Assembly (NCBI GenBank): GCA_035473115.1
Contig: DATION010000005.1
Location: 86,339-150,338, forward strand
Length of the DNA: 64,000 nt
Reading direction: 5' to 3'
Origin: Candidatus Udaeobacter sp.
GTDB taxonomy: Bacteria > Patescibacteriota > Patescibacteriia > Magasanikbacterales > GWA2-37-8
Shown: one piece after another, positions 8,298-55,840 of the stretch
How the letters are laid out: each line of letters begins with the position of its first letter
Numbering within the stretch: position 1 is the stretch's first letter
The notes under the pieces: model-generated
What the model was told of the DNA's origin: nothing
Seen by the model: only the letters and a program-made list of their open reading frames with translations
Databases searched by the model: none
Program-made: the position numbers and the translations under genes

Positions 8298-9560
8298 CTA
8301 GAGCAATCTGCTTTGCCTATCACCTAATTTTTGTTTTTCAGGCATAACTTCAACCGAACCAAATACTCCATCGTAACCAGGCTTAACTCTTACATTACCA
8401 CTGCGCATATTACTGATAGCAGTCGAAATATTTTTATCACTTGTATTTTTTTCTATTTCCTCTATACCTGCTTTAAGCAAAATAAAAAATTCACTGCCCA
8501 AATTTTTTAACATTGAATCATACTCCTTTAAAACTTTCTTGCTGCTTGGACCAACTCCAAATACTTTAGAAATAATTTCTTTAAGCGGCACAATATATTT
8601 GTGCGGAATAAATTTGGCTTGATCAATTTTTTCTTCGGCGCGATCAGCTAAATCATCCACTCGGTGCAGCACGCCTACAGTTACCGGTTTTTTACAATTG
8701 GGGCATAAAAACTTTTTTGCTTTGGTTTCTTTTGGTGACAAACAAACTTCGCATACCGCATGTCCATCATAATGATATTTTCCTTCTTCAGGATAAAATT
8801 CGATGGTATATAAAAATTTTTCTTTATTACCGGTTTTAATTACATCCAAAATTTCATTGTAAGTAAAATTATCATTTAAATTAAAAACATTGGCTTCCCT
8901 ACCCAAATTATTTAGACTGTGAGCATCAGAATTAGAAATCAAAGTAATATTATCCAAAGCCGAAAGCTGATGATTCATAACCGGATCACTAGACAGTCCG
9001 GTTTCAACTGCGCGGATATGAGGAGTTAATTCTTCAAAACATTCTTCCAAAGAGTCATAACCGGATTTTGATCCAAAAACTGCAAACCATGGCGTCCAAA
9101 TATGGGCCGGTATCATCATAAATCCGGGGTCAATAGCCAAAATTATCTCTAAAACTGCCTTGGCAGACAAACCCATAATCGGCCGGCCATCAGAGCGGAT
9201 ATTAACGCCCTTGGCCTCTAAAACAGCATTAAACTGATCTATAGCCTCTATACTGGGGGCCAGAACAAGCAAATGTACCCGCCGAGTAGCGTCTTTATCC
9301 TTATAAATACAAGAAATTTCCGTACCTAAAATAAATCTGGTTTGGCTGCTATTATCTTTTAATTTATAAATCCCTTTGCGTTCTTCAACTAAATTTTCTT
9401 TGATATGTTTTACCCAAGCCGGATGAGTAAAGTCGCCAGTCACCACAATATCTATGCCTTTTTGTTCGCAAGCTTTGGCAATTTTTGGCAATTCTAAATC
9501 TGCCGAGCAAGCTCGGGAGTAACGGGAATGAATATGAAGATCAATTATTTTTTCGGACAT
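8298..9560 (-). CDS. PHP-domain metal-dependent phosphoesterase with a C-terminal Cys4 zinc ribbon
   Basis: N-terminal IDLHIHSRYS PHP motif and a C-terminal CEVC...CPNC ribbon. Confidence 0.7.
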   Translation of the reverse strand: MSEKIIDLHIHSRYSRACSADLELPKIAKACEQKGIDIVVTGDFTHPAWVKHIKENLVEERKGIYKLKDNSSQTRFILGTEISCIYKDKDATRRVHLLVLAPSIEAIDQFNAVLEAKGVNIRSDGRPIMGLSAKAVLEIILAIDPGFMMIPAHIWTPWFAVFGSKSGYDSLEECFEELTPHIRAVETGLSSDPVMNHQLSALDNITLISNSDAHSLNNLGREANVFNLNDNFTYNEILDVIKTGNKEKFLYTIEFYPEEGKYHYDGHAVCEVCLSPKETKAKKFLCPNCKKPVTVGVLHRVDDLADRAEEKIDQAKFIPHKYIVPLKEIISKVFGVGPSSKKVLKEYDSMLKNLGSEFFILLKAGIEEIEKNTSDKNISTAISNMRSGNVRVKPGYDGVFGSVEVMPEKQKLGDRQSRLL

Positions 9561-9563
9561 GAT

Positions 9564-10304
9564 TTATAATTTACGATCGGCTTCTCCAATATATTCTGTT
9601 TCGTCTGATTCCAAACGACGCAATCCGACATCGCCCATCATTTCCTCAAAAATATGAGCTACCAAACCGGGGACGCGAGCAATGATAAAAATTCCTTTGG
9701 TAACCTGCCAGGGAAAACCCATATCCAAAAGAATAGCGGCCATAGCACCATCAACATTTAAAGGCAGCGGCTTGGAAGAAATTTTATTCAATTCTATCAT
9801 CACCTCTTCGGCAAAAGCGCAATACTTGCCATAAAAACCTGTTTCTTTGGCAACTGTAAAAACTGTATCCGTACGATTATCATGAGTTAAAACTTTATGT
9901 CCATAACCCGGCAACCTGATTTTTTTGTCTTTAAGAGATCTAACCAGTTCAGCCACATTTTTTTCTGTTATATTTTCTGTAAAAAATTTGGCCGCGTCTT
10001 CGGTGGCACCGCCATGCAACTTGCCCATAGCCAAAATTCCCGCAGCCAAAGACGTATGCAGGCTATTGCCCGATGAAGCCGTAATACGGCTAGTCATCGC
10101 CGAAGCTGTGCCAATACCGTGGTCTATGGCTGCCACCAGCATAGCATTAAGCATTTTGGTTTCATTTTCATTAGGCAAATTTCCTTTTAAAATTAAAAAT
10201 ATAGTTTCCGTAAAACTTTTATTTTTAATTAAACTCTCCAAACTATACCCGCGAACAATCTCTTGGTTATCGGAAACCTTGCTGATAGCTGTTTTCCATT
10301 GCAT
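9564..10304 (-). CDS. Citryl-CoA lyase-like protein (citrate synthase-family C-terminal domain of ATP-citrate lyase)
   Basis: GYGHKV, LNVDG and GIFIIARVPGLVAHIFEE blocks match the ACL/citrate-synthase small-domain pattern. It is downstream of the SucC/SucD-like genes. Confidence 0.6.
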   Translation of the reverse strand: MQWKTAISKVSDNQEIVRGYSLESLIKNKSFTETIFLILKGNLPNENETKMLNAMLVAAIDHGIGTASAMTSRITASSGNSLHTSLAAGILAMGKLHGGATEDAAKFFTENITEKNVAELVRSLKDKKIRLPGYGHKVLTHDNRTDTVFTVAKETGFYGKYCAFAEEVMIELNKISSKPLPLNVDGAMAAILLDMGFPWQVTKGIFIIARVPGLVAHIFEEMMGDVGLRRLESDETEYIGEADRKL

Positions 10305-10308
10305 ACAA

Positions 10309-11202
10309 TTAATTTAAAAATGATTTTACTAAACCTGCCAAGTCCTCATATTTATCAGCAATCTTTACGCCCACTGCCGCCAAAGCGGCTTCTTTTTCCG
10401 CTGCACTTTGGCCGCGGCCAACAATTGCTCCAGCATGACCGATATTCATACCTTGTGGAAAAACATTGGCAAATTTTCCGCCGATATAAATTGCCAAGGG
10501 CTTGGTGTATTCTTTATTTTTAATGGCTTCAACTATCTCAAACTCAAAACTGCCGCCATGTTCACCAAAAATTGCTACGGCTTTGGTTTGATCATCTTTT
10601 TCAAATAAACGTAAAATGTCAGCATAGGTCATTCCCATTAACAAATCTCCGCCTACGTGAATAGCGGCGCTTTGCCCCAAACTGGCTTTGCGTATTTGCC
10701 AAGATAATTCATTGGTCATTCCGCCCGAACGAGAAATTATTCCCACTGAGCCGGGCATAAAAATTTCATCTACCAAAGATCCGCCTACCACACCAATACG
10801 GCCAACTCCCGGAACAATCAAGCCCAAAGAGCTTGGGCCGATAATTTTGATATTTTTTTCTTTAGCTGCTGCCAAGCAATATGCAGTATCTTGAATAGGT
10901 ATTCTCTCTACAATAATATTTATCAGCGAAATATTATTTTCTATCGCCTCTAAAATTGCAGCTTTAGCGGCAAATGGCGGCACATAGATCGCTGTGGTAT
11001 TTATATCAGGAAAATTTTCTTTGGCTTCTTTAATGGAATTAAAAACCGGCTTGCCTTCGACTTCTTGCCCGCCTTTATTTGGCGTCACACCGCAAACAAC
11101 GCTAGTATGATAATCCAACATAGCTTTTGTGGCTTTGGCGCCTTCTTTACCGGTCATGCCCTGGACCAAAACTTTGGTATTTTTATCTATCAAGATGGAC
11201 AT
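10309..11202 (-). CDS. Succinyl-CoA synthetase alpha-like CoA-binding subunit (citryl-CoA synthetase or ACL small-subunit-like)
   Basis: CoA-binding/ligase motifs (GMTGKEG, GPSSLGLIVPG, phosphohistidine loop IGHAGAIV). Confidence 0.75.
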   Translation of the reverse strand: MSILIDKNTKVLVQGMTGKEGAKATKAMLDYHTSVVCGVTPNKGGQEVEGKPVFNSIKEAKENFPDINTTAIYVPPFAAKAAILEAIENNISLINIIVERIPIQDTAYCLAAAKEKNIKIIGPSSLGLIVPGVGRIGVVGGSLVDEIFMPGSVGIISRSGGMTNELSWQIRKASLGQSAAIHVGGDLLMGMTYADILRLFEKDDQTKAVAIFGEHGGSFEFEIVEAIKNKEYTKPLAIYIGGKFANVFPQGMNIGHAGAIVGRGQSAAEKEAALAAVGVKIADKYEDLAGLVKSFLN

Positions 11203-11204
11203 AT

Positions 11205-12350
11205 TTATTCTTTAATCATATCCGCTAAAATTTGAGCCGTGGCGCTCATACTGGTTTCTTTGCCAAACAACTTTATATTTAAATTATTGCGCGCAGCGCA
11301 TTCCTGCATCAAACGCATACCTTCTTCTTCGTATGGCCCCGCGCGGCGAACAACAATCGGAAACTTCGGCTTAATTTCATCTAAAGCATCACAGATGCCA
11401 TGGAAAGTTTCGGCAATATTGGTAAAATTGGCCACACCACCGGCGATCCACAGGCCTTTTAAACCCGGTTTTGCTAAAACAATTTTGGCCAGCTGATAAA
11501 CTTTTTCTCGCGGTGGATTACCGGAATATTCGGTGTAATTGGCCGGACGCAGTCCAGTTTTAAGCAGCGCATCCATATTGGCGATACTGGCGCCGCCACC
11601 GGAAAATAAAACAGCAATATCTCCATCCATTTCAATATATTTACCGGCAGTACCGCGATAATAACCTTCACCTTCATCTATTTTTTTCACGGCCGATTCT
11701 CTTTCGGTTGGCAATCTGCCCAACATGGTGCGCGGCGCTAAATTTTTCCATTCTTCATGACGATAAAAAGCATCTTCATCTAGCGCTACTTTGGCATCAG
11801 TCGCAAACCAGCGACCGTCTACAGTTTCAACCAACGGATTTATTTCTACAACTCTGGCATCTTCTTGCAAAAAGCATTGCCATAAATTTTCTGCAAAACG
11901 GATACCAGTTTCAATATCTTTTTTTCTTATATCTAACGGCATTTTGACTATCTTATCTTCGGCTACATCTTCAATATCCATGCCGCCAGCCGAGCTATAA
12001 ATCACAATCGGTTGCTTAGCAATAGTATCATAGGTAATAGAAAGATAATGTTCGGCAGCGATAGCCAGTTTTTCTTCAATTAAAACCGCAGCCACATATT
12101 GACCATTTACATTACTGGCAAATAATTCCTCACAAGCTTTAACTGTACTGCTAGTATCAGAGCAAAATTTAATTCCATTATTTTTACCGCGTTTGCCAGC
12201 CAAAACTTGAGCTTTGGCAACCACCTCTTTAATACCCAAATTTTCATAAGCTTTAGCAAAATCTTCATCACGATAAACAACTACTCCTTTGGGGATAGCT
12301 ATACCATGTTTGGCAAATAAGTTTTTCCCTTCAAATTCGTATAAATTCAT
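11205..12350 (-). CDS. Succinyl-CoA synthetase beta-like ATP-grasp subunit
   Basis: N-terminal MNLYEFEGKNLFAKHGI ATP-grasp start typical of SucC/AclB. Confidence 0.75.
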   Translation of the reverse strand: MNLYEFEGKNLFAKHGIAIPKGVVVYRDEDFAKAYENLGIKEVVAKAQVLAGKRGKNNGIKFCSDTSSTVKACEELFASNVNGQYVAAVLIEEKLAIAAEHYLSITYDTIAKQPIVIYSSAGGMDIEDVAEDKIVKMPLDIRKKDIETGIRFAENLWQCFLQEDARVVEINPLVETVDGRWFATDAKVALDEDAFYRHEEWKNLAPRTMLGRLPTERESAVKKIDEGEGYYRGTAGKYIEMDGDIAVLFSGGGASIANMDALLKTGLRPANYTEYSGNPPREKVYQLAKIVLAKPGLKGLWIAGGVANFTNIAETFHGICDALDEIKPKFPIVVRRAGPYEEEGMRLMQECAARNNLNIKLFGKETSMSATAQILADMIKE

Positions 12351-12833: not shown

Positions 12834-12897
12834 ATTTTTGCAGTGGCCATCGCACCCTCAGGAGGGCGTCCGCAGGACGTTTGGCCACAAGAAAATT
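12834..12897. repeat. GC-rich structured intergenic repeat, copy 2 (closing stem GTGGCCA...TGGCCAC with compensatory C/G change)
   Basis: Same terminal motifs as copy 1. Internal hairpins ccctc-ag-gaggg and cgtcc-gca-ggacg. Confidence 0.55.
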
Positions 12898-12908
12898 GCT
12901 ATTGGTTA

Positions 12909-13874
12909 TTATAGTCCACTTTTAATTATATTACTCAAAACTACAGCTAATTTTTCTGAGCTTGTACCACCATCAACCGCTTCTAAATCTAGACTTTTTA
13001 TTTTGGTAGTTTTTAAATTTTCTTTATCAAATTCAAACACGCCCCATTTTTTGGTTTGATAAACCTGTTTCTGTTTTTTGTTTAACTTATGATTATTATG
13101 AATTACCAGATCAATATGGTGCGGCAAATATTTTTCCAGCTGCAAAATAAAATCACTCAATCTTTCTGGGCCAGTTTCGCCATCCAAACGATAAGCTCCG
13201 CCGGCAACATAAATTATTTTGGCTTTTTTATTTTTGGCCATGCCCTCTTTAATTCCTTTGGGCAGAAGAGCGGCAATCAAACTGGTATATAAACTGCCCG
13301 GACTAAGTATTATATAATCGGCAGTGGCAATAGTTTTTTGTGCTTCAATATAGGCTAAACAATTTGGCTCAAGCCAAACCTTTTTTATCTTAATACCTCT
13401 ATTATACCTTGGATTATCTATAAACTCTTCAGTTCTAATAATATCTCCATTCTCAAGCTCGGCCACCAAATCGGAATTTTCTAGAGTCGCGGGGTAAACT
13501 TTCCCTTGAGCTTCCACACTTTGCGCCAAAGCTTCCAAAGCATAAAGAAAATTTTTGGAATACTGGCTGGTTAAAGTTAAAAATAGATTGCCTAAATTAT
13601 GACTGTCTAGCTTGCCGGTATTTTTGAATCTTGGTTTATAAAAAATCTGCCTTAACATTTTATAATCGTACTTAGAAAGCGACAAAACAGCTCGCATAAT
13701 GTCTCCCGGAGGCAAGGTACTAAACTCCTTTCTTAACTTACCTGAAGATCCGCCGGAATCACTCATAGAAATGACTGCGGAAATATCAAATTTGCCTGTA
13801 TATTTTTTCAAAGCTTCCAAACAAATTGCCGAACCATTACCACCGCCAATAACAACAATCTTTTTTTTAGACAT
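12909..13874 (-). CDS. YvcK/GlmR-family (CofD-like, UPF0052) gluconeogenesis factor
   Basis: VVIGGGNG and SMSDSGGSSG motifs characteristic of YvcK. Confidence 0.75.
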   Translation of the reverse strand: MSKKKIVVIGGGNGSAICLEALKKYTGKFDISAVISMSDSGGSSGKLRKEFSTLPPGDIMRAVLSLSKYDYKMLRQIFYKPRFKNTGKLDSHNLGNLFLTLTSQYSKNFLYALEALAQSVEAQGKVYPATLENSDLVAELENGDIIRTEEFIDNPRYNRGIKIKKVWLEPNCLAYIEAQKTIATADYIILSPGSLYTSLIAALLPKGIKEGMAKNKKAKIIYVAGGAYRLDGETGPERLSDFILQLEKYLPHHIDLVIHNNHKLNKKQKQVYQTKKWGVFEFDKENLKTTKIKSLDLEAVDGGTSSEKLAVVLSNIIKSGL

Positions 13875-13875
13875 A

Positions 13876-14541
13876 CTAAAATTTAATCCCTAAAAAATCA
13901 TAAATTTTTTTATCATCCAGCTCATTAACAATCAAGTCAGCCGCAGAATAATCGCCATTGCTCCAGCGCTGGTCAAACCTAACTACGCATTTCATACCCG
14001 CTCTTTTGGCTGCGTTAAGACCATTTTCTGAATCTTCAACCACCACGCACTCACTTGGATCTACACCTAACTCTTGGGCGGCATAAAGAAAAATAGCTGG
14101 ATCCGGCTTGCCAACATAATCCACATGATCAGTAGAAACTAAAGCATCAAAATAATTATGCCAACTAAACCGATCAACAATTTTTTTGATACGATCTAAG
14201 CTGGCTCCGGAAGCTATAGCTGTTTTTTTGTCAGCCTGCTGTTTAATCCGTTTTAACAAATCATCCGCACCTAAAAGCGGCAGGGAATGATCTGTGTACA
14301 CCGCTTCGCTGCAATTAATTTTATGATTAATAATATCTTCCAAAGGATTGGGCAAGTTATGAATCTCTTTAAATATTTTTGATGACTCAGACAAACTTTT
14401 GCCGTTTATTAATTTTACCCAGTCATGTGAAAAAGGAACGTTAAATAATTTTAAAAAATTTTTTTCCGCATTAAACCAATGCATTTCGCTATCTATCAGC
14501 GTGCCATCCATATCAAAAAGTATTGCTTTAAAATTAGACAT
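13876..14541 (-). CDS. HAD-superfamily hydrolase, beta-phosphoglucomutase-like
   Basis: N-terminal DxDGT motif (ILFDMDGTLIDSE). Confidence 0.7.
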   Translation of the reverse strand: MSNFKAILFDMDGTLIDSEMHWFNAEKNFLKLFNVPFSHDWVKLINGKSLSESSKIFKEIHNLPNPLEDIINHKINCSEAVYTDHSLPLLGADDLLKRIKQQADKKTAIASGASLDRIKKIVDRFSWHNYFDALVSTDHVDYVGKPDPAIFLYAAQELGVDPSECVVVEDSENGLNAAKRAGMKCVVRFDQRWSNGDYSAADLIVNELDDKKIYDFLGIKF

Positions 14542-14545
14542 AAAA

Positions 14546-16369
14546 TTATTCTACAGTTACCGACTTAGCCAAATTCCTCGGCCGATCCACATCTCGCCCC
14601 AAAGCTACCGCCATATAATAAGCAAAAAGCTGCAAAGGAATTACGTTTAATAAAGGCTCAAGTAATTCCATAGTTGGTGGTACAAAAATCACGTCGCTGG
14701 CCAATTCTTTGGCTTGCTGGTCGCCTTCAGTGGCCAACAAAATTATTGGTGCTTTTCGGGCTTTAATTTCTTCTATATTACTACGCATTTTATCGTATAA
14801 CTGATTTTTGGTCATAATAGCCAAGACAGGAAATTGTGGTGAAAGTAAAGCAATCGGTCCATGTTTCATTTCCCCGCCCGGGTAAGCCTCACTATGAATA
14901 TAAGTAATCTCTTTTAGTTTTAACGAACCTTCCAGAGCTACCGGAAAATTTATTCCCCGTCCTAAAAAGAAAAAATCCTGGGAGTTTTTATACTTTTCCG
15001 CCAACTCTTTAATTTTATCGCTTTGCTGCAAAATAATTTTCATTTTTTCCGGAATTTCTTGCAAAGCGCCGAGCAATCTTTGACCCGTAGCTAAAGAAAG
15101 ATTTTTTAATCGGCCAAACTGCAGAGCGTATAATAATAAAACTGCAGTCATATTGGTAAAAGCTTTACTGGAAGCCACTGCCAATTCTGGACCGGCATGA
15201 ATATAAGTGCCGCCATCGGTTTCTCGGGCAATAGTTGAGCCAACCACATTAACAATCCCGCGCACAAACGCTCCTTTACGTTTGGCTTCTTTTAAAGCCG
15301 CTAATGTATCAGCGGTTTCACCTGACTGAGAAATGCCAAAAACTAAAGTTTGATTATCTATAATCGGATCACGGTATCTAAACTCGCTGGCTACCTCTAG
15401 TTCTGTCGGAATTCTAGCCAACCGTTCAAACATATACTTTCCAGCCAAACCTGCATAAGAAGCAGTGCCGCAAGCGATCAGAATAATCCGCTTAATACTG
15501 TGCATCTGCTCACCGGTCATATTTAGCCCACCCAAATGAGCAGTGCCTTCACTTACATTATAACGACCGCGAATTGCATCGGCAAAAACAGTCGGCTGAT
15601 CAAAAATCTCCTTCAGCATAAAATGAGAAAATCCTTGTTTTTGAGCTTGGGCCTCATCCCAAGCAATTTCTTCTATTTTTTTATTTATACTGACATCTTT
15701 TAAATTTACCGTCTGCATCTGCTCCCGGCTTATTTCGGCCACTTCACCATCGTCTAAAAAAATAACTTTCTTGGTGTAAGCCAGCATTGGCGTGGCATCG
15801 CTGCCAACAAAAAATTCATTATCACCAATGCCAACAACCAGAGGGCTGCCCATACGCGCCACAACCAGAGTGTTTGGATGATCACTATGCATTACCACTA
15901 AACCATAAGTACCGCGTACTTGGCTCAGAGCTTCCAAGACTGCTTTACGCAAGTCACCCTTGTAATAAGATTCAATTAAGTGCGCCAAAACTTCGGAGTC
16001 TGTTTCCGATTTATAAACATGACCTGTCCCCAATTCTCTTTTCAATTCCCGGTAATTTTCAATTATGCCGTTATGAGCCAAGACTATTTTACCGGTACAT
16101 TCGGTATGAGGATGGGCATTAAGTTCGGTAACCCCGCCGTGAGTTGCCCAACGCGTATGAGCAATTCCATATGTGCCAGCTAAATTTTGATTATTTATTT
16201 TTTGAGCCAGATTATCTATTTTGCCAACGGCTTTGGCAGATAAAAATTCTCCATTATTTAAAATAGCCACGCCGGCGCTATCATAGCCGCGATACTCTAA
16301 ACGACGCAAGCCATTTAATAAAATAGGCAAAGCATTTTTATTTCCAATATAGGCAACAATACCGCACAT
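14546..16369 (-). CDS. glmS: Glutamine--fructose-6-phosphate aminotransferase
   Basis: N-terminal MCGIVAY glutaminase nucleophile, SIS domains, C-terminal ...KSVTVE. Confidence 0.95.
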   Translation of the reverse strand: MCGIVAYIGNKNALPILLNGLRRLEYRGYDSAGVAILNNGEFLSAKAVGKIDNLAQKINNQNLAGTYGIAHTRWATHGGVTELNAHPHTECTGKIVLAHNGIIENYRELKRELGTGHVYKSETDSEVLAHLIESYYKGDLRKAVLEALSQVRGTYGLVVMHSDHPNTLVVARMGSPLVVGIGDNEFFVGSDATPMLAYTKKVIFLDDGEVAEISREQMQTVNLKDVSINKKIEEIAWDEAQAQKQGFSHFMLKEIFDQPTVFADAIRGRYNVSEGTAHLGGLNMTGEQMHSIKRIILIACGTASYAGLAGKYMFERLARIPTELEVASEFRYRDPIIDNQTLVFGISQSGETADTLAALKEAKRKGAFVRGIVNVVGSTIARETDGGTYIHAGPELAVASSKAFTNMTAVLLLYALQFGRLKNLSLATGQRLLGALQEIPEKMKIILQQSDKIKELAEKYKNSQDFFFLGRGINFPVALEGSLKLKEITYIHSEAYPGGEMKHGPIALLSPQFPVLAIMTKNQLYDKMRSNIEEIKARKAPIILLATEGDQQAKELASDVIFVPPTMELLEPLLNVIPLQLFAYYMAVALGRDVDRPRNLAKSVTVE

Positions 16370-16372
16370 AAA

Positions 16373-17125
16373 TTAAATACTATGAGCTATTTCCAAATGT
16401 TCTTTAGTGTTAATACCAATCGCTTCTTCTGGATCAATTGAAATATTTGATACTTTATCGGTTTTCATTGCCTGATCAACTAAATCAGTTAAATAATATT
16501 CGCCTTGCGCGTTATTATTTTTTAAATTTTTTACTTCTTGCCAAAACCAATCGGCATTAAAACAATAATAGCAAGGATTGAGTTCATTGCCGTCAGCTTC
16601 TGTAGGGGTGGCATCCCGTAACTCAACTGACTTAGCTATTTTTCCGTTTTCATCTCGAATAATACGCCCAAAATCGTGCAACGCCGCATATTTACCCTTA
16701 AAATCCGGCACAGTAACTGTCATCAAGGTAAGAATATTTTGCTCGCTTACATGTTTTTCGGCCAGCCGTTTTATAGATTCTGCCTTCAAAAAAGGCATAT
16801 CGCCATATAAAACAATGATATTTTCTACTTTGCCTTGCAAAACTTTGGCTGCGCAAGCAGCAGCATGCCCGGTGCCAAGCTGCTTGTCTTGGATTACATA
16901 TATAGCTCGGTCTCCTAAATAATCCTGCACAAATGTATGATTTGGGTTAACAATCACAACCGGTTTTTCACAAACCCCAGATGCTTCAACGTTAGCAACA
17001 ACATACTCAATCAAAGGTTTTCCTTTCAAAAGATTCATCACTTTTGGCAAATCACTTTTCATTCTTTTTCCTTCACCGGCAGCCAAAATGACCACACCGG
17101 TTTTACTTAATTTGTTGGGCAACAT
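16373..17125 (-). CDS. Sugar-phosphate nucleotidyltransferase, GlmU N-terminal-like but lacking the LbH acetyltransferase domain
   Basis: ILAAGEGKRMKSDLPKV signature. Only 250 aa. Confidence 0.7.
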   Translation of the reverse strand: MLPNKLSKTGVVILAAGEGKRMKSDLPKVMNLLKGKPLIEYVVANVEASGVCEKPVVIVNPNHTFVQDYLGDRAIYVIQDKQLGTGHAAACAAKVLQGKVENIIVLYGDMPFLKAESIKRLAEKHVSEQNILTLMTVTVPDFKGKYAALHDFGRIIRDENGKIAKSVELRDATPTEADGNELNPCYYCFNADWFWQEVKNLKNNNAQGEYYLTDLVDQAMKTDKVSNISIDPEEAIGINTKEHLEIAHSI

Positions 17126-17741
17126 AATTTTGTATATCTGTTAAGTTGGTAAAATACGGCACACCTATTTTTGCCGCTTCGACTTCAGAATCACGTTTAA
17201 TATTAAGCTTGGTGACTACCAGAGCCGCAGGAATTTCTGTTTTTACCGATTTATTTTCTTTAAGATTGTCGTTCACAAAAAATATTTTATTACCGACAAA
17301 ATTTCCCACTAAATATTTCGGTTTGCCGCCGCTAATTATAATAACATCATCAAAATTATTATAAATTTTACTGGCTTTTATTTTTCTCAACTGAAAATCA
17401 TAATCCCCGGCCGAAAGCAGCATTACTTTTTCGGAAACTTGTTTTAAAAATTGTAAAAATGATTGGGCTTCGGGAAAAATATAATCTTTAACAAACAAGG
17501 TATTTAGTTCTGCTTCTATACTCTCGGGCAGCTTGTAGCCCAGTTCCCGTAAAAAACTGATATGCTCCGGAAAACTGTAGTCGTATTGATCGGGACTGAT
17601 AGTGCATAGAGACTGACGGAAAGTTTTTTTAATATCCTCAACGGAGGCGCCATATTTGGAAAAAATATTCAAAATATCATTTTTAAACATCTCCGTATCA
17701 TAAACGGTATTATCCCAATCAACAAAGGCAAAATCAAACAT
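17103..17741 (-). CDS. HAD-like hydrolase
   Basis: FVDWDNT (DxDxT) motif at the N-terminus. Confidence 0.55.
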   Translation of the reverse strand: MFDFAFVDWDNTVYDTEMFKNDILNIFSKYGASVEDIKKTFRQSLCTISPDQYDYSFPEHISFLRELGYKLPESIEAELNTLFVKDYIFPEAQSFLQFLKQVSEKVMLLSAGDYDFQLRKIKASKIYNNFDDVIIISGGKPKYLVGNFVGNKIFFVNDNLKENKSVKTEIPAALVVTKLNIKRDSEVEAAKIGVPYFTNLTDIQNYVAQQIK

Positions 17742-17747
17742 AGTTTA

Positions 17748-18572
17748 TTAGCTATTTAAAACGATATCTGAAATTACTTGGAATCTCTGTTTAACTACTG
17801 CCAATAAAAAATTATTTTTTTCTGCTTCGTTTTTATAATCAGATATTTCTTGCCACAAAGCTCGACCGGCCAAAAATCCGACTGCTCCGGCGGCAACAGC
17901 ATCTGTTAACTGCTTTTCAAAAACAGAAAATTTTTCACCTCTGGTTAAAAGAATCCAAGGTGTCGGACCAACTAATTTTGATATTTTTTTACAAGAATCC
18001 AGATCTCCGGGATATTCCAGTTTCCAGACATCCGGAATAATATTATTTTCTAAAAGAATTTCTACTGATCGCAGAACCCATTCGGCTCGAGTCTTGCCTA
18101 ATTCTTCATTGCCATAAGTGACAATTTCCAAAAAAAACGGCAAACTATTCGCATGGCTATCTGCCAAAGCTATTTGAGCAGTTTTTATTTGCTGAGAAAC
18201 ACTGGCCGCTTCCGGATTAAAATATAATAATAATTTTGCTCCGCTTGCGCCCTGTTCTTTTAATTGTTTGGCAGGATATTCTAGCTCGGTAATTTTTTCA
18301 CCGGCATTATCCATGTAACCGCTTTTTTCTAGCGGCAAAAGATAAGGCTTGCTTTTAGATTTATAGCCAGGCAAACCCCAATCTAAATCAATAAGCAAAC
18401 CGCTAAACTGATCCTGAACTGATTCAATAATCATAGCTTTAGCTTGAACCAATTCTTGCTCAGAAGCAGCTTCCGGATTATTTGGGTTTATATATTTTTT
18501 AAAACTTTCCCGGTGATCTAAAGCTAACATTAAAAATTTTCCTTTGGTCTGAAATTTTGTTAAATCAAGCAT
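17748..18572 (-). CDS. Putative class I aldolase-like (LacD/DhnA-type TIM barrel) protein
   Basis: LMLALDHRESF resembles the ALAFDQRG block of tagatose/fructose-bisphosphate aldolases. This is a weak call. Confidence 0.35.
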   Translation of the reverse strand: MLDLTKFQTKGKFLMLALDHRESFKKYINPNNPEAASEQELVQAKAMIIESVQDQFSGLLIDLDWGLPGYKSKSKPYLLPLEKSGYMDNAGEKITELEYPAKQLKEQGASGAKLLLYFNPEAASVSQQIKTAQIALADSHANSLPFFLEIVTYGNEELGKTRAEWVLRSVEILLENNIIPDVWKLEYPGDLDSCKKISKLVGPTPWILLTRGEKFSVFEKQLTDAVAAGAVGFLAGRALWQEISDYKNEAEKNNFLLAVVKQRFQVISDIVLNS

Positions 18573-18619
18573 ATTTTAGCGCTAAAAAGCACCTTTAGAA
18601 TAACATAGAGAAAATCGAG

Positions 18620-18670
18620 CGTCAAACAAAAAAGGCCGCATCTCCCGCCACAGAGATTTGGCCCGACGAC
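18620..18670 (-). terminator. Rho-independent terminator of the GC-rich gene
   Basis: ggcc(aa)atctc...gagat(gc)ggcc hairpin followed by TTTTTTGTTT on the minus strand. A 20-bp perfect palindrome ggtcactcctaggagtgacc lies nearby at 18713-18732. Confidence 0.45.
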
Positions 18671-18747
18671 TACCCGTTCACGCTGTCTCGCGACAGTGCG
18701 AATATTGGGCTGGTCACTCCTAGGAGTGACCAAATGTACTACTTGGT

Positions 18748-20007
18748 TTACTTCTGACTTTCCTGCAGTTCCGCGGCGTTGGAATACCAGAGCGCGATCT
18801 GCAGATCTTCCTCGTTCCTCGCCAACTCCGTATTGTGCGCAGCTGCGAGACGGAATTTACCACCATGCTTCTTCAGAACAGTGGCGGCCAGCTTTTCAGC
18901 CGCCGCTTTACCCAAGTCAGGATTGCTCTTCGTCAGCAGATCAATCATCTGCTGCAGATTTGCGCTCCGAGCTTCGGCTTCAACCTGCTCAGACTGAACC
19001 TGATGATCACACACCTCCTGAGCAGCTTTGGTCTTGGCCACGGCCGCGATCCAGGTTTGCGAACTGGACAGAAGCACCATGTTGTGCTTGGTGGGAAGTT
19101 TGCGCATCTCGGTCTTGAGATCATCGAACTCCGCTGGCGTAGAACGATCGCTGATCTGCTTACCCCAGGCCTTGATGAGTTGGTTAACGAGCTCAATATG
19201 ATGTTGCAACGCAACCCCATACTCGCGCAGGCCATCAGATTCGTTCCTGCGCATCTCACCTTGAACCCACTTGATCCAACTGATAAGCAATCCGCGGAGA
19301 GCGAGCGCATAACCCACACGCCTGAACACAAGGATAGGGAGCTTCTCCCCAATCTGCTTTTCGAGCACCACGACCGCTTCTGGAATCGCAGGCAATGCTG
19401 GCTTCTGAGCGGGCTTGGACGTTGGAGCAGTCGCAACAGCAACCTTCGTCTTGACAGGTTTATCTTTCTTGGTTGGTTCGGGCTGGACGAGAGCATGGTC
19501 CTGCCCACCGACGCGAGAGTCAATCCATTCCTTCAGATCATCGGCCGTTACAGGTCGTGAAGCGGCAACAGCCTGGCGGAATGCTGCTAACTTATCCTGC
19601 CTCTCGCGATCGGCACGCGCTTGAGCAGCCCGTGCCTCACGATCAGCTTGCTCCTGTGCGGCCTTCCGCTCAACAGCTTCCTTGGCGAGCTTCGCCTGCC
19701 GCCGATCCTGCTACGTCTGTCGGATCTCCTTCATGGATCCTTCGTCACCGAGAACATCTTCCACGGTGAGCGCTCCCACCATTTCCAGTCGAACCAACTC
19801 CTCCTGCGCCAACGCACGGAGTTCATCGGACGACGGTTCATCGGAGTTGCTCGCGGTCGGCTCCGGAGGAACCGAAACGAGCTTGGAGATCTCCGTAGCA
19901 GCCTCGCCTTCAACAGGCAGGTTGCCGCGGTTCTCGGTGGAGGAGGTGCCAGTGGTAACAAGCGAGAGAATAGAAACAGTCGTCATGACGAGACCCTGCC
20001 TTTCCAA
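18748..20007 (-). pseudogene. GC-rich (about 62%) foreign-looking gene of 419 sense codons interrupted by one in-frame TAG (plus-strand cta at 19711-19713)
   Basis: The track ORFs 19711..20007 and 18748..19395 are in the same frame. The stretch 19396..19710 is open in that frame with no ATG. Third-position GC bias is consistent with coding. Confidence 0.5.
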
Positions 20008-20375
20008 TTAGCTGCTAAATAAGGCTCTTTTATCCCACTTCTGCAGAATGCAGACTAGGAGAACCTTCCGCCATTAAATATCAAATTAATGATATAAACT
20101 GGCTGAAAATCCTCTTAAAAATAACAGAATAATATATCATAAATTACACTCTATGTCAATGGTTATTTTTTTAACCAACCTCACAAAACTAAGTTGCCAC
20201 TAAAATCAAAGCTTCCGCCCCGCTGCGGCTAAGGGCGGATAGTAAACTGACACAAAAACAATCCGCTTGGGCGGGTTGTTTTTGGTCGTTAACTCGCCGC
20301 TTGAGCGGCATAATTAGCCAGACGGATTTCTCTGCTTGTGCAGATAAATCTCGTCGCTAATTAAAAAAAGACCAT

Positions 20376-20487
20376 TGTCCTGGCGACGGCCTACTTTTGC
20401 ATTTCTGCTATCATCGGCGCTGAGAGGCTTAACTTCTGTGTTCGGGATGGGAACAGGTGTGACCCTCTCGCTCATGTCACCAAGACA
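20376..20487 (-). rRNA. rrf: 5S ribosomal RNA
   Basis: CCTGTTCCCATCCCGAACACAGAAGTTAAGC core and terminal helix CTTGGTGAC/GTCGCCAGG, with an extended flanking processing stem gaccattgtc/gacaatggtc. Confidence 0.85.
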
Positions 20488-20604
20488 ATGGTCTTTTTCT
20501 TTTTTAAATTTATATTTTTAACAACAATTTATAAAACAATAATAAGGTTCTGCTTATAAATTAGACGATAATTTATAAGTTCAAAGCACGTCTTAGTGCT
20601 TCTT

Positions 20605-23637
<3,033 letters not shown>

Positions 23638-24080
23638 GCACGACTAAAGCACTAAAAAGTGCTTCTCCCATTTGCGGATTTCCTATTAAGAATCCGCGGG
23701 ATTAATCGCGTTTGTGTAGTATTACCTACATACCCTATTATTGTTTATAAATTGTCAACGTACACGCGTTGCAACCTTTACTTTCATTTCAATCAAAGTG
23801 AGTCCCGAAGGAGAATCCCATTGGGAAAATCTGCCTTACGGTTCTCGCTTCGCCTGAAATGATTTTTATTTTATCACTTTATAAAACACAACGACCGCCT
23901 GCAAGCGGTCTCTCAAAACTGAGGATTTAACCACTCGGACTAACTGAGTAAAAATTTAATCTGTTTTATCATTTTGATATTTTAGAATAAAATTTATTTA
24001 CCCAGAGGTCCAAGCGATACTTTTTTTGTATTCTACTTGTGGACTTGGTTCGTAATTAAATTACGATTTTGCGTAGGAGC

Positions 24081-51354: not shown

Positions 51355-51456
51355 TACCCCCGCCGGGACTTGAACCCGGATCGTATCTTCAGAAAGATAG
51401 GCTGTCACGCTTCGGATTACAAATCCGATGTTCTATCCAAATTGAACTACGAGGGC
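51355..51456 (-). tRNA. Atypical tRNA-like gene: Thr anticodon (TGT) with a 32-nt variable region containing a 6-bp hairpin; G1-U72
   Basis: Perfect D-arm (GTTC/GAAC), anticodon arm (TCGGA-TTTGTAA-TCCGA) and T-arm (CCGGG-TTCAAGT-CCCGG). The acceptor stem has two G-U pairs. The 32-nt variable arm is incompatible with a canonical tRNA-Thr. Confidence 0.45.
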
Positions 51457-55203: not shown

Positions 55204-55659
55204 TTACAGCTGAACGTAGCCGTGCTTCACAGCAAACCGCGTAAGCTCGGAGTTGTTGCGCAACCCCAGCTTTTTCATCACATGACCGCGATGCGTATCA
55301 ACGGTCTTGACGCTGATCTCCAGCTGCTCGGCGATCTCCCGGTTGGTCAGGCTTCGCGCCAGCATCTCCATCACCTGCTGCTCGCGAGCAGTGAGAGCGC
55401 TGGCTGGATGACCTTCGGCTGCAACTTCACTCCGCAAGTGGTCCAGCCCTTCGGGTGGTAGAGACAAAAACTCCTCTAGACGATTACTGACAAACTTGTC
55501 CAGAGCGTCTGCAACAGCCTGTTTCAATTCAGGCTGTCTCGCTCTTACCACAATGGCAAAATCAGCCTGCTGCTGGCTGGTTAGCTCAGACAGATCAACC
55601 GAAAACGGTAATGACAACCACGCCGAAGGAACATGCAGAAGTGCGAATCTGACGGTCAT
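55204..55659 (-). CDS. LuxR/GerE-family HTH transcriptional regulator, GC-rich (about 53%)
   Basis: C-terminal LTAREQQVMEMLARSLTNREIAEQLEISVKTVDTHRGHVMKKLG HTH. AGGAAGG SD. Composition unlike the flanking sequence. Confidence 0.6.
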   Translation of the reverse strand: MTVRFALLHVPSAWLSLPFSVDLSELTSQQQADFAIVVRARQPELKQAVADALDKFVSNRLEEFLSLPPEGLDHLRSEVAAEGHPASALTAREQQVMEMLARSLTNREIAEQLEISVKTVDTHRGHVMKKLGLRNNSELTRFAVKHGYVQL

Positions 55660-55840
55660 AATAACCTTCCTGTGTCACAAAGTGACGAGAGCTGTTGAAT
55701 GGATGGTTGGGAGCACTCCAACCTTCTATACAAGAAAGCCTAACAGAAAACCAGCTTTTGTCAATATAACAAACATTGCTATCAAACACCGCAATTGTTA
55801 TACTTAATACTAATAATATAATTGCTAATTTCGCTATAAT

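Follow-up and report, generated by a model that had tools for sequence, protein, structure and literature searches.

Why does a gene much richer in G+C than its surroundings stand beside the ribosomal RNA (rRNA) genes of an AT-rich bacterium, and what is to be made of the single in-frame amber codon that interrupts it? The question is raised by a 64,000-nucleotide stretch of contig DATION010000005.1 (hereafter the window, meaning this whole stretch at its full length), in which a long minus-strand frame lies between a 5S rRNA gene and an aldolase gene. An initial annotation, made from the letters alone, offered three possibilities, namely a recently acquired gene inactivated by a nonsense mutation, programmed read-through or suppression, and a chimeric assembly joint. 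We hold, with moderate confidence, that the frame is a resident, lineage-specific gene in a conserved slot next to the rRNA genes, that it was recently disabled by a nonsense mutation, and that its C-terminal tail is missing.

An interrupted protein-coding gene

Translation of 18745-20010 (-) confirmed the interrupted frame that had been proposed: 18748-20007 is open on the minus strand apart from one internal stop, the TAG at 19711-19713, and terminates at the TAA at 18748-18750. The likely start is the ATG at 19986-19984, which has GGAAAGG ahead of it and gives 412 codons with the TAG as codon 92; the TTG at 20007, an alternative start, lacks a ribosome-binding site. The open reading frame (ORF) is made up as follows.

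19714..19986 (-): codons 1-91, a Ser/Thr/Glu-rich N-terminus and a conserved 'EEL...LTVEDVL' module (translation; in-frame alignment to homologue N-termini)
19711..19713 (-; plus-strand cta): in-frame amber TAG, codon 92, context ACG TAG CAG GAT, the same in a second assembly (L031)
18748..19710 (-): codons 93-412 and TAA, comprising a coiled coil, a linker and a conserved all-helical domain (IPEAV..L....LP..F, FRGW-like, AWG)

GC content by codon position (GC1/2/3) is 0.66/0.42/0.62 over the ORF, a coding-like pattern that holds throughout the frame (0.63/0.45/0.66 in codons 1-91). When the segment was shuffled 3000 times with dinucleotides preserved, a stop-free run of at least 320 codons had P = 0.0013 and a run of at least 419 codons with no more than one stop had P = 0.001. 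Since this pattern is coding-like, the shuffle probabilities are ~0.001, homology to two proteins, P0002 and P0003, is significant and the alignment runs in frame across the TAG, the segment is a protein-coding gene. A structured RNA gene was considered instead and rejected, as Rfam was empty, the homology is at the protein level and GC1 exceeds GC2 in the canonical way. No other ORFs were found inside the GC-rich unit. The GC content is lower than the 'about 62%' first given: it is 55.6% over 18610-20040 and 56.4% in the ORF, with values of 62-66% confined to some 50-nt blocks at about 19600-19950. The base composition is atypical for the host (40.0% GC in the window, 39-40% in the flanks; GC1/2/3 of 0.48/0.38/0.33 in 28 long window ORFs, with a GC3 standard deviation, SD, of 0.037) and steps sharply at both ends of the ORF.

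Such a step could point to an artefact, either a chimeric contig of a GC-rich contaminant and a genome of the candidate phyla radiation (CPR) or, for the TAG, an error in the consensus base. The NCBI label given to a protein of this contig, 'Candidatus Udaeobacter sp.', is also doubtful, so that binning or labelling of this metagenome-assembled genome (MAG) is unreliable. However, the Logan assembly of run SRR9656165 (L031, 7915 bp), made by an independent assembler, is 100% identical to 12835-20749 of the window, a match that extends over the TAG and across the two boundaries at which the GC-rich segment begins and ends. Because the two assemblies are identical, the stop codon is real. Moreover, the unit is bracketed by a promoter, a leader, a 3' stem-loop and an aldolase promoter homologous to those in MAGs of other lineages, which rules out a chimeric join, and the same architecture of rRNA genes, GC-rich gene and aldolase recurs in MAGs from different studies and unrelated projects. 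We regard an artefact of either kind as very improbable.

The encoded protein belongs to a family, here called family A, whose other members are P0004 (locus L004), P0002 (L032), P0003 (L033, with L034 as a duplicate assembly) and the protein of L003/L035. An exhaustive phmmer search of 1.84 billion representative proteins with the part after the TAG returned three matches: the window's own truncated gene call, P0002 (411 aa, E = 3e-7) and P0003 (444 aa, E = 5e-5), the latter two both on Patescibacteria-like contigs. By tblastn, L004, L032 and L033/L034 were matched with E values from 8e-16 to 1e-9, and L003 was joined to the family through L004 (E = 3e-19). The five intact homologues, of 396-510 aa and 27-45% identity, have uninterrupted ORFs (L004, L032, L033, L003/L035), and the alignment takes in the N-terminal 'EEL...LTVEDVL' module, the coiled coil, which had been anticipated for the central region, and the motifs IPEAV..L....LP..F and AWG. 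The impression that the product is typical of high-GC actinobacterial or phage proteins was not borne out: homologues were found only on Patescibacteria-like contigs, and phage records, plasmid records and IMG/VR viral contigs held no relatives. Scans of genome contigs and viral contigs with the window protein and P0004 returned no relatives, and a metagenome scan with the L004 and P0002 alignment returned nothing. In a word-indexed search of 5.8 billion proteins, where coiled-coil words saturate the candidates, the window protein found nothing and the profile only P0004. Profile searches of the product assigned no Pfam, NCBIfam, PHROGs or PADLOC family, these collections and the PDB sequences giving only sub-threshold noise. 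An AlphaFold2 model from a four-sequence alignment is all-helical with a disordered linker and tail (predicted local distance difference test score, pLDDT, 76.5; predicted template-modelling score, pTM, 0.35), and Foldseek matched it to nothing in the PDB at E <= 0.001. The family is undescribed and fast-evolving, with proteins of about 400-510 aa that are all-alpha and highly charged; an intact member begins with a short conserved module, continues with a long coiled coil and then a helical domain, and ends in a disordered Lys/Arg/Gly-rich tail.

The window copy departs from this layout twice. It stops about 70-130 residues short of its homologues, without the Lys/Arg/Gly-rich C-terminal tail, and its ORF is interrupted; in homology, slot position and GC3 it agrees with the family. 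It thus appears to be a damaged member of family A. The TAG falls in a non-conserved column at the start of the coiled coil, where homologues have C, L, R or A, and homology is continuous and in frame across it, in keeping with the earlier remark that the product reads on through the codon. In all five homologues this column and its surroundings are free of stops, and the sense codons at the column differ from one homologue to another. No closer relative was found in which the column could be checked, as a metagenome scan with the leader DNA pattern returned only L035, from the same organism as L003. Past the TAG, GC3 is still 0.60, there are no further stops or frameshifts, and family-invariant residues are retained. 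Since there is no second lesion, the invariant residues are kept and GC3 is still at this level, the event looks recent, and we infer that the lesion is young. The ORF holds 21 CAG codons, each one C-to-T step from TAG, and the base composition of the genome points to AT-biased mutation; we likewise infer a CAG origin and the direction of the mutation.

Could the gene still function, either because read-through or suppression of the amber codon is frequent enough to be useful or because the 91-residue N-terminal module is itself a working product? Its promoter, leader, ribosome-binding site and 320 downstream codons are undamaged and still GC3-rich, and the linker position at which the TAG falls is not conserved and would tolerate any residue. 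With C as the next base (UAG-CAG), the codon also stands in a comparatively weak context for termination. However, none of the nine transfer RNAs (tRNAs) of the 64-kb window has a CUA anticodon, so the amber suppressor that had been thought worth seeking is absent from this stretch. Ordinary genes of the window end in TAG (6 of 44 long ORFs), and therefore TAG is a working stop here. With no stop in this region in any of the five homologues, there is no sign of a programmed, conserved signal, and after the TAG no in-frame ATG, GTG or TTG occurs until 19395, 105 codons on. Programmed read-through or suppression, as proposed earlier, thus found no support, and we consider it unlikely that the gene is functional in any of these ways. 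A tRNA at 51355-51456 (-), 102 nt long, was detected by Rfam and missed by ARAGORN; it was examined as a possible suppressor and rejected, since it is a tRNA-Thr(UGU), whose variable region carries ~29 inserted nt. Unusual use of TGA was also considered and set aside: it closes none of the first 28 long ORFs, but at a lower length cut-off it closes 3 of 44 and is thus rare but used.

The rRNA-adjacent slot in the window and in relatives

The window aldolase shares ~70% identity with proteins from MAGs of Candidatus Magasanikbacteria and of other Patescibacteria, and the window 23S rRNA is 91-97% identical to those of L001, L002 and L006 over aligned blocks. These matches indicate a Magasanikbacteria-like (Patescibacteria/CPR) genome. 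Several MAG labels met in this work are clearly unreliable ('uncultured Gammaproteobacteria', 'Candidatus Udaeobacter'). From the rRNA genes to the aldolase gene, the locus reads as follows.

20604..23642 (-): 23S rRNA gene (RF02541, 2465 bits)
20378..20484 (-): 5S rRNA gene, the upstream anchor of the slot (Rfam RF00001, 82.5 bits)
20253..20284 (-): hairpin with T-run (CAAAAACAATCCGC/GCGGGTTGTTTTTG), the probable terminator of the rRNA unit (inverted repeat, sequence reading)
20131..20159 (-): sigma-70-type promoter, TTGACA, 17 nt, TATATT, with TG extension (scan, 11 of 12 matches)
20018..20073 (-): structured 5' leader, an extended hairpin with P1 (AAGGTTCT/AGAGCCTT), a middle helix and P2 (CTGCA/TGCAG)
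18711..18732 (no strand): 22-bp perfect palindrome (TGGTCACTCCT/AGGAGTGACCA) that includes CCTAGG, between the stop codon and the 3' stem-loop
18670..18709 (-): three-tier stem-loop of the 3' untranslated region (UTR) with a GNRA cap (ctgtc-GCGA-gacag; RNAfold)
18628..18663 (-): the gene's intrinsic terminator (GGCCAAATCTC...GAGATGCGGCC, then TTTTTT; sequence reading)
18597..18625 (-): aldolase promoter, TTGACG, 17 nt, TATTCT, the downstream boundary of the unit (promoter scan)
17748..18572 (-): DeoC-family aldolase, the downstream neighbour (Pfam DeoC)

The gene had been described as lying directly downstream of the 5S gene; it is indeed downstream and on the same strand, but it starts about 390 nt away, with a terminator hairpin, promoter and leader in between. 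As side observations on the rRNA genes, the 23S match spans 3039 nt against a model of 2925 positions, and a 16S gene is absent from the whole window, so that the rRNA genes appear to be unlinked.

The order 23S, 5S, slot and aldolase is kept across L001-L017, and the content of the gap varies.

L006, L007, L016: gap empty, 70-140 bp
L011-L015, L017: gap of ~800 bp, with an HD-domain gene of host-like GC
L001, L002, L004, L005, L008, L009: GC-rich insert of 0.9-3.3 kb

Family A homologues occupy this slot on the rRNA strand, after 23S-5S and before a DeoC aldolase or HD gene; the contigs of L003/L035 and L032 break off shortly before the slot on its upstream side, as expected at an rRNA operon. 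In L033, three LAGLIDADG ORFs (1944-4661) lie upstream of the slot gene. The ORFs found in the slot are of several kinds.

L004, L003/L035, L032, L033/L034: family A
L001 (4091-5701), L010: family B, Cys-rich, with three CxnCCDGN...C repeats and a KGKGKG tail
L009 (700-1878): family C, Cys-rich, with zinc-finger-like Cys clusters and a KGKGKGKGKK tail
L002 (9025-9480), L005 (695-1147): family D, a 150-aa membrane protein
L008 (about 890-1237): a short ORF

Among the ORFs of the slot inserts, only the TruD gene in L004 matched Pfam. Families A and B were considered as one family and kept apart, since only weak similarity at the N-terminus links them (hhalign, pairwise E = 5e-4, 32% probability), and family C showed no such similarity. 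The high GC3 of families B-D leaves long antisense frames open.

What most of these loci have in common, whichever family fills them, is the frame around the ORF. Promoters equivalent to that of the window (TTGACAAAAC...TGTGGTATAWT) stand ahead of the slot ORFs in L001-L005, L008, L009, L032 and L033. Between the 5S gene and the promoter, the window has a spacer of about 220 nt (20160-20377, -), against about 25-40 nt in L001, L004 and L005; several GC-rich hairpins lie within it, together with a fragment that repeats the first 11 nt of the leader (GGCGGAAGCTT, 20209-20219), and the spacer may be the remnant of a lost earlier unit or cassette.

The leader lies about 15-40 nt upstream of the ribosome-binding site and bears an A-rich bulge (UAAAA) on its 3' side. 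A covariance model, R1, built from two copies, scored 69.7 bits at the window leader, its sole strong match in the window, and recovered the leader in nine independent slot loci (besides the duplicate assemblies L031 and L034), weakly and partially in L032. The leader is always upstream of a GC-rich ORF, whatever the ORF family (A, B, C or D), and elsewhere in 560 kb R1 gave only weak chance matches. Over eight sequences, 90% of paired cells can pair, against 76% in shuffles, none of 500 of which reached 90%; both sides change in 10 of 13 pairs, and slid controls pair at 35-49%. RNAalifold independently found the same helices, plus the middle helix, and the minimum free energy z-scores range from -1.9 to -6.0. 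No Rfam 15 family was found for the leader, whether at E <= 10 across 18400-20650 or, for five other loci, at E <= 1 in their leaders. The covariation and the lack of an Rfam match indicate that the leader is an undescribed RNA motif. An R1 match in L018 raised the idea of an IS200/IS605-like, hairpin-bounded element, which was rejected because the match lies inside a Y1 transposase coding sequence; that gene (~10000-11700, -, in a Daviesbacteria MAG) is of the repetitive extragenic palindrome (REP)-associated/IS200-like type, with the motif LMPNHFHLLV and flanking 'gtattcccac...gtgggaa' hairpins.

The 3' stem-loop likewise has the same architecture at seven loci, capped by GCGA, GUGA or GCAA in six, and its outer helix covaries (CCC/GGG, CCA/TGG, CCG/CGG). 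It is common to loci with unrelated ORF families; outside family A it was checked in L001, L002 and L005, and in L008 by eye only. The terminator hairpin of the gene, which the initial annotation had correctly seen, is a hairpin with T-run that has equivalents in L003, L004, L032 and L001, and the aldolase promoter (TTGACGCTC...TATGTTATTCT) is kept in L003 and L004 and present as a variant in L032. The palindrome is the exception to this conservation. It is perfect, as had been noted, but 22 rather than 20 bp long; it is unique in the window, was matched in none of 100 shuffles, and is absent from the homologous 3' UTRs, being specific to the window copy. It may mark a rearrangement that removed the 3' end of the ORF, and a deletion scar, a protein site or an extra hairpin may account for it.

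GC3 excess and the origin of the gene

The window ORF has a GC3 of 0.62 against 0.33 in the host, about 8 SD higher, and its codon use is inverted (AAG:AAA 25:6, against 40:186 in the host). This favours a recent import from a high-GC donor, such as an actinobacterium, another GC-rich bacterium or a phage, into the site beside the rRNA operon, followed by inactivation. The genome does hold foreign DNA of this kind. A second GC-rich island at 55204-55659 (-), with GC1/2/3 of 0.64/0.38/0.61 and a promoter near 55764, encodes a 151-aa protein with a GerE/LuxR helix-turn-helix, a NarL/FixJ response regulator truncated at the 5' end; the closest relatives of this protein, from Kofleriaceae/Myxococcales, are 206 aa long and match it at about 80% identity over the C-terminal 55%. 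From this ancestry it looks like DNA captured from a GC-rich Myxococcota-like donor, which would mean that the window genome does take up GC-rich DNA. A third GC-rich unit at 4428-4930 (+), of 54% GC, has a promoter (TTGACA, 17 nt, TATAAT), two ORFs at 4524-4661 (45 aa) and 4661-4774 (37 aa, hydrophobic), a GC-rich 3' UTR and a terminator near 4895-4925; the whole-window Rfam scan gave no match to it at the gathering threshold.

Slot content, too, can move between lineages. In L002, a stray 3' fragment of a 5S gene (8782-8817) lies immediately before the cassette promoter. It matches the window 5S over 36 nt at 97% identity (BLAST) and, judged by eye, agrees with L005 for roughly 48 nt, and the 5S end of L002 itself differs from this L005/window-type fragment. 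The L002 module therefore seems to have arrived with a neighbour's 5S end, which would imply recombination anchored in the rRNA gene. In L011, a 5' half-copy of the 5S gene (8967-9020) stands beside the slot, and both partial duplicates are probably recombination scars at the rRNA anchor.

The comparison with relatives, however, argues against a recent import of the window gene. No homologue was found beyond Patescibacteria-like contigs in the 1.84 billion representative proteins or in the phage, plasmid and viral sets, and the same position, leader and 3' element occur in six lineages with aldolases only about 70% identical. In family A homologues, GC3 is 0.76-0.88 against 0.37-0.56 in the host. 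The seven slot ORFs measured in relatives have 0.70-0.91 against 0.37-0.56 in surrounding genes; high GC3 thus extends to families unrelated to family A, whose four measured ORFs (in L001, L002, L005 and L009) also lie at 0.70-0.91. Across eight loci, ORF GC3 rises with host GC3 (r = 0.88) and exceeds it by 0.29 to 0.43, the excess being smallest in the window, and such scaling would not be expected of independent imports from one donor pool. No integrase was found, nor any flanking direct or target-site repeats, attachment (att) sites or terminal inverted repeats beyond weak AT-rich chance matches. Finally, aldolase and family A identities move together in six pairs among four loci (85% with 45% for L004-L032; about 70% with about 30% for the other pairs), a pattern consistent with a gene that is inherited along with the host but changes much faster. 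Since there are same-slot homologues, co-divergence with the aldolase, host-coupled GC3, no repeats and no phage, plasmid or viral relatives, the gene is better seen as native and long resident than as foreign, and a recent import is unlikely. The first of the three earlier possibilities thus holds in part: inactivation is the best reading of the amber codon, but recent acquisition of the gene finds no support, the homologues all occupying the same slot and GC3 tracking that of the host.

Under the reading that we favour, a resident gene recently disabled, the self-contained unit of promoter, structured leader, ORF, GNRA-capped stem-loop and terminator is native to a Magasanikbacteria-like lineage and fills a slot, conserved in place but variable in content, that lies between 23S-5S, at their 3' end, and the aldolase or HD gene. 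A single point mutation would have created the TAG at codon 92; the simplest such change is from C to T in a CAG codon, in a host whose mutation pressure is AT-biased. The 3' end encoding the basic tail is also missing. Translation would stop after 91 residues, leaving a young pseudogene or, at best, a gene for a stump. The comparisons demonstrate the anatomy, homology and synteny of the unit, but several points weigh against the rest of this account. The search for a suppressor tRNA took in only 64 kb of the genome. Both assemblies may come from the same reads, and a population polymorphism of TAG and sense codons is conceivable. The promoter, the leader and 320 clean downstream codons are intact, as in a gene that is still expressed, and the shorter C-terminus could be a natural variant rather than damage. 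Vertical inheritance is argued from only six pairwise comparisons among four loci, and any guess at function draws on composition, a strong promoter and position, with an AlphaFold model of modest confidence and without a fold match.

A broader explanation, which we put forward tentatively and hold to be less probable than not, is a dedicated expression slot after the rRNA operon of Magasanikbacteria-like CPR bacteria. Within a frame of promoter, leader and 3' stem-loop, orphan ORFs that evolve rapidly and come from at least four families unrelated to one another would be interchangeable, and their synonymous sites would be actively held 0.3-0.4 GC above the genome. If so, an unrecognised process would be at work, of which the window copy would be one turnover event; candidates are rRNA-anchored cassette exchange with GC-biased conversion, or selection for GC-rich, stable messenger RNAs (mRNAs) under a common trans-acting regulator. 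We speculate, in either case, that the GC3 excess is upheld by selection on the mRNA or by GC-biased recombination or conversion at an exchange-prone locus.

Relation to known systems and significance

A full-text literature search returned nothing on GC-rich genes beside CPR rRNA operons, and the locus resembles several known systems in part. In SAR11 'Pelagibacter', hypervariable region 2 (HVR2) lies between the 23S and 5S genes as a ~50-kb island that is AT-richer than the genome. As in HVR2, a variable gene set adjoins conserved rRNA genes, close relatives differ in what they carry there (families A-D, an HD gene or no gene) and there are traces of rRNA-anchored recombination, such as the stray 5S fragment of L002. 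Unlike HVR2, the slot comprises one to three genes in 0.1-3.3 kb, is GC-richer than the genome and has a conserved promoter, leader and 3' stem-loop. The model of Lawrence and Ochman describes horizontally acquired compositional islets that subsequently ameliorate, and the atypical GC and codon use of one gene, its sharp boundary and its disabling mutation are of this kind. However, there are no donor homologues, mobility genes or repeats, the unit is syntenic in long-diverged lineages, and the GC3 offset is steady while absolute GC3 follows the host. Integron gene cassettes are similar in that single, mostly orphan ORFs of varied families occur at one site with an imperfect palindromic stem-loop after each; they differ in that here no integrase or attC array was seen, each unit has its own promoter and leader, and the 3' element is a GNRA-capped, RNA-like hairpin with a terminator and, by inspection, without the R/L boxes of attC. 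One in-frame TAG in an otherwise intact ORF also recalls amber read-through and reassignment (pyrrolysine, suppressor tRNAs, TAG-recoded phages), but the window has no suppressor tRNA, host genes stop at TAG and the TAG is not conserved.

With a conserved, covarying hairpin and an asymmetric A-rich bulge near the ribosome-binding site, the leader resembles cis-regulatory 5' leaders of the ribosomal-protein, protein-binding and stabilising types; unlike these, it has no Rfam family and precedes unrelated proteins. Because the proteins that follow it are unrelated (families A to D), it is unlikely that each product simply regulates its own expression, and we speculate that the shared leader is the target of a host factor common to these units and that the mRNA is thereby controlled or stabilised. 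The intact proteins might be abundant nucleic-acid- or ribosome-associated factors, a speculation prompted by a strong promoter, a location next to the rRNA genes and the disordered, basic tails of the proteins, which families B and C have as well.

The amber codon itself would be ordinary gene decay and, alone, a minor finding. It is the type of locus that is unusual and apparently undescribed: a GC-shifted, fast-evolving orphan gene at a fixed rRNA-adjacent address in ultra-small, AT-rich bacteria. A foreign gene is expected to drift toward the composition of its host. The GC3 offset persists where housekeeping proteins are only 70% identical, which makes it puzzling, and explaining it bears on the question of bacterial GC content, that is, on the parts played by selection on mRNA and by GC-biased conversion at recombination hot spots. 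GC-rich segments of this kind in CPR MAGs should not be trimmed as contamination. The slot gives a handle on CPR proteins that are probably highly expressed, and its leader provides a concrete new RNA motif.

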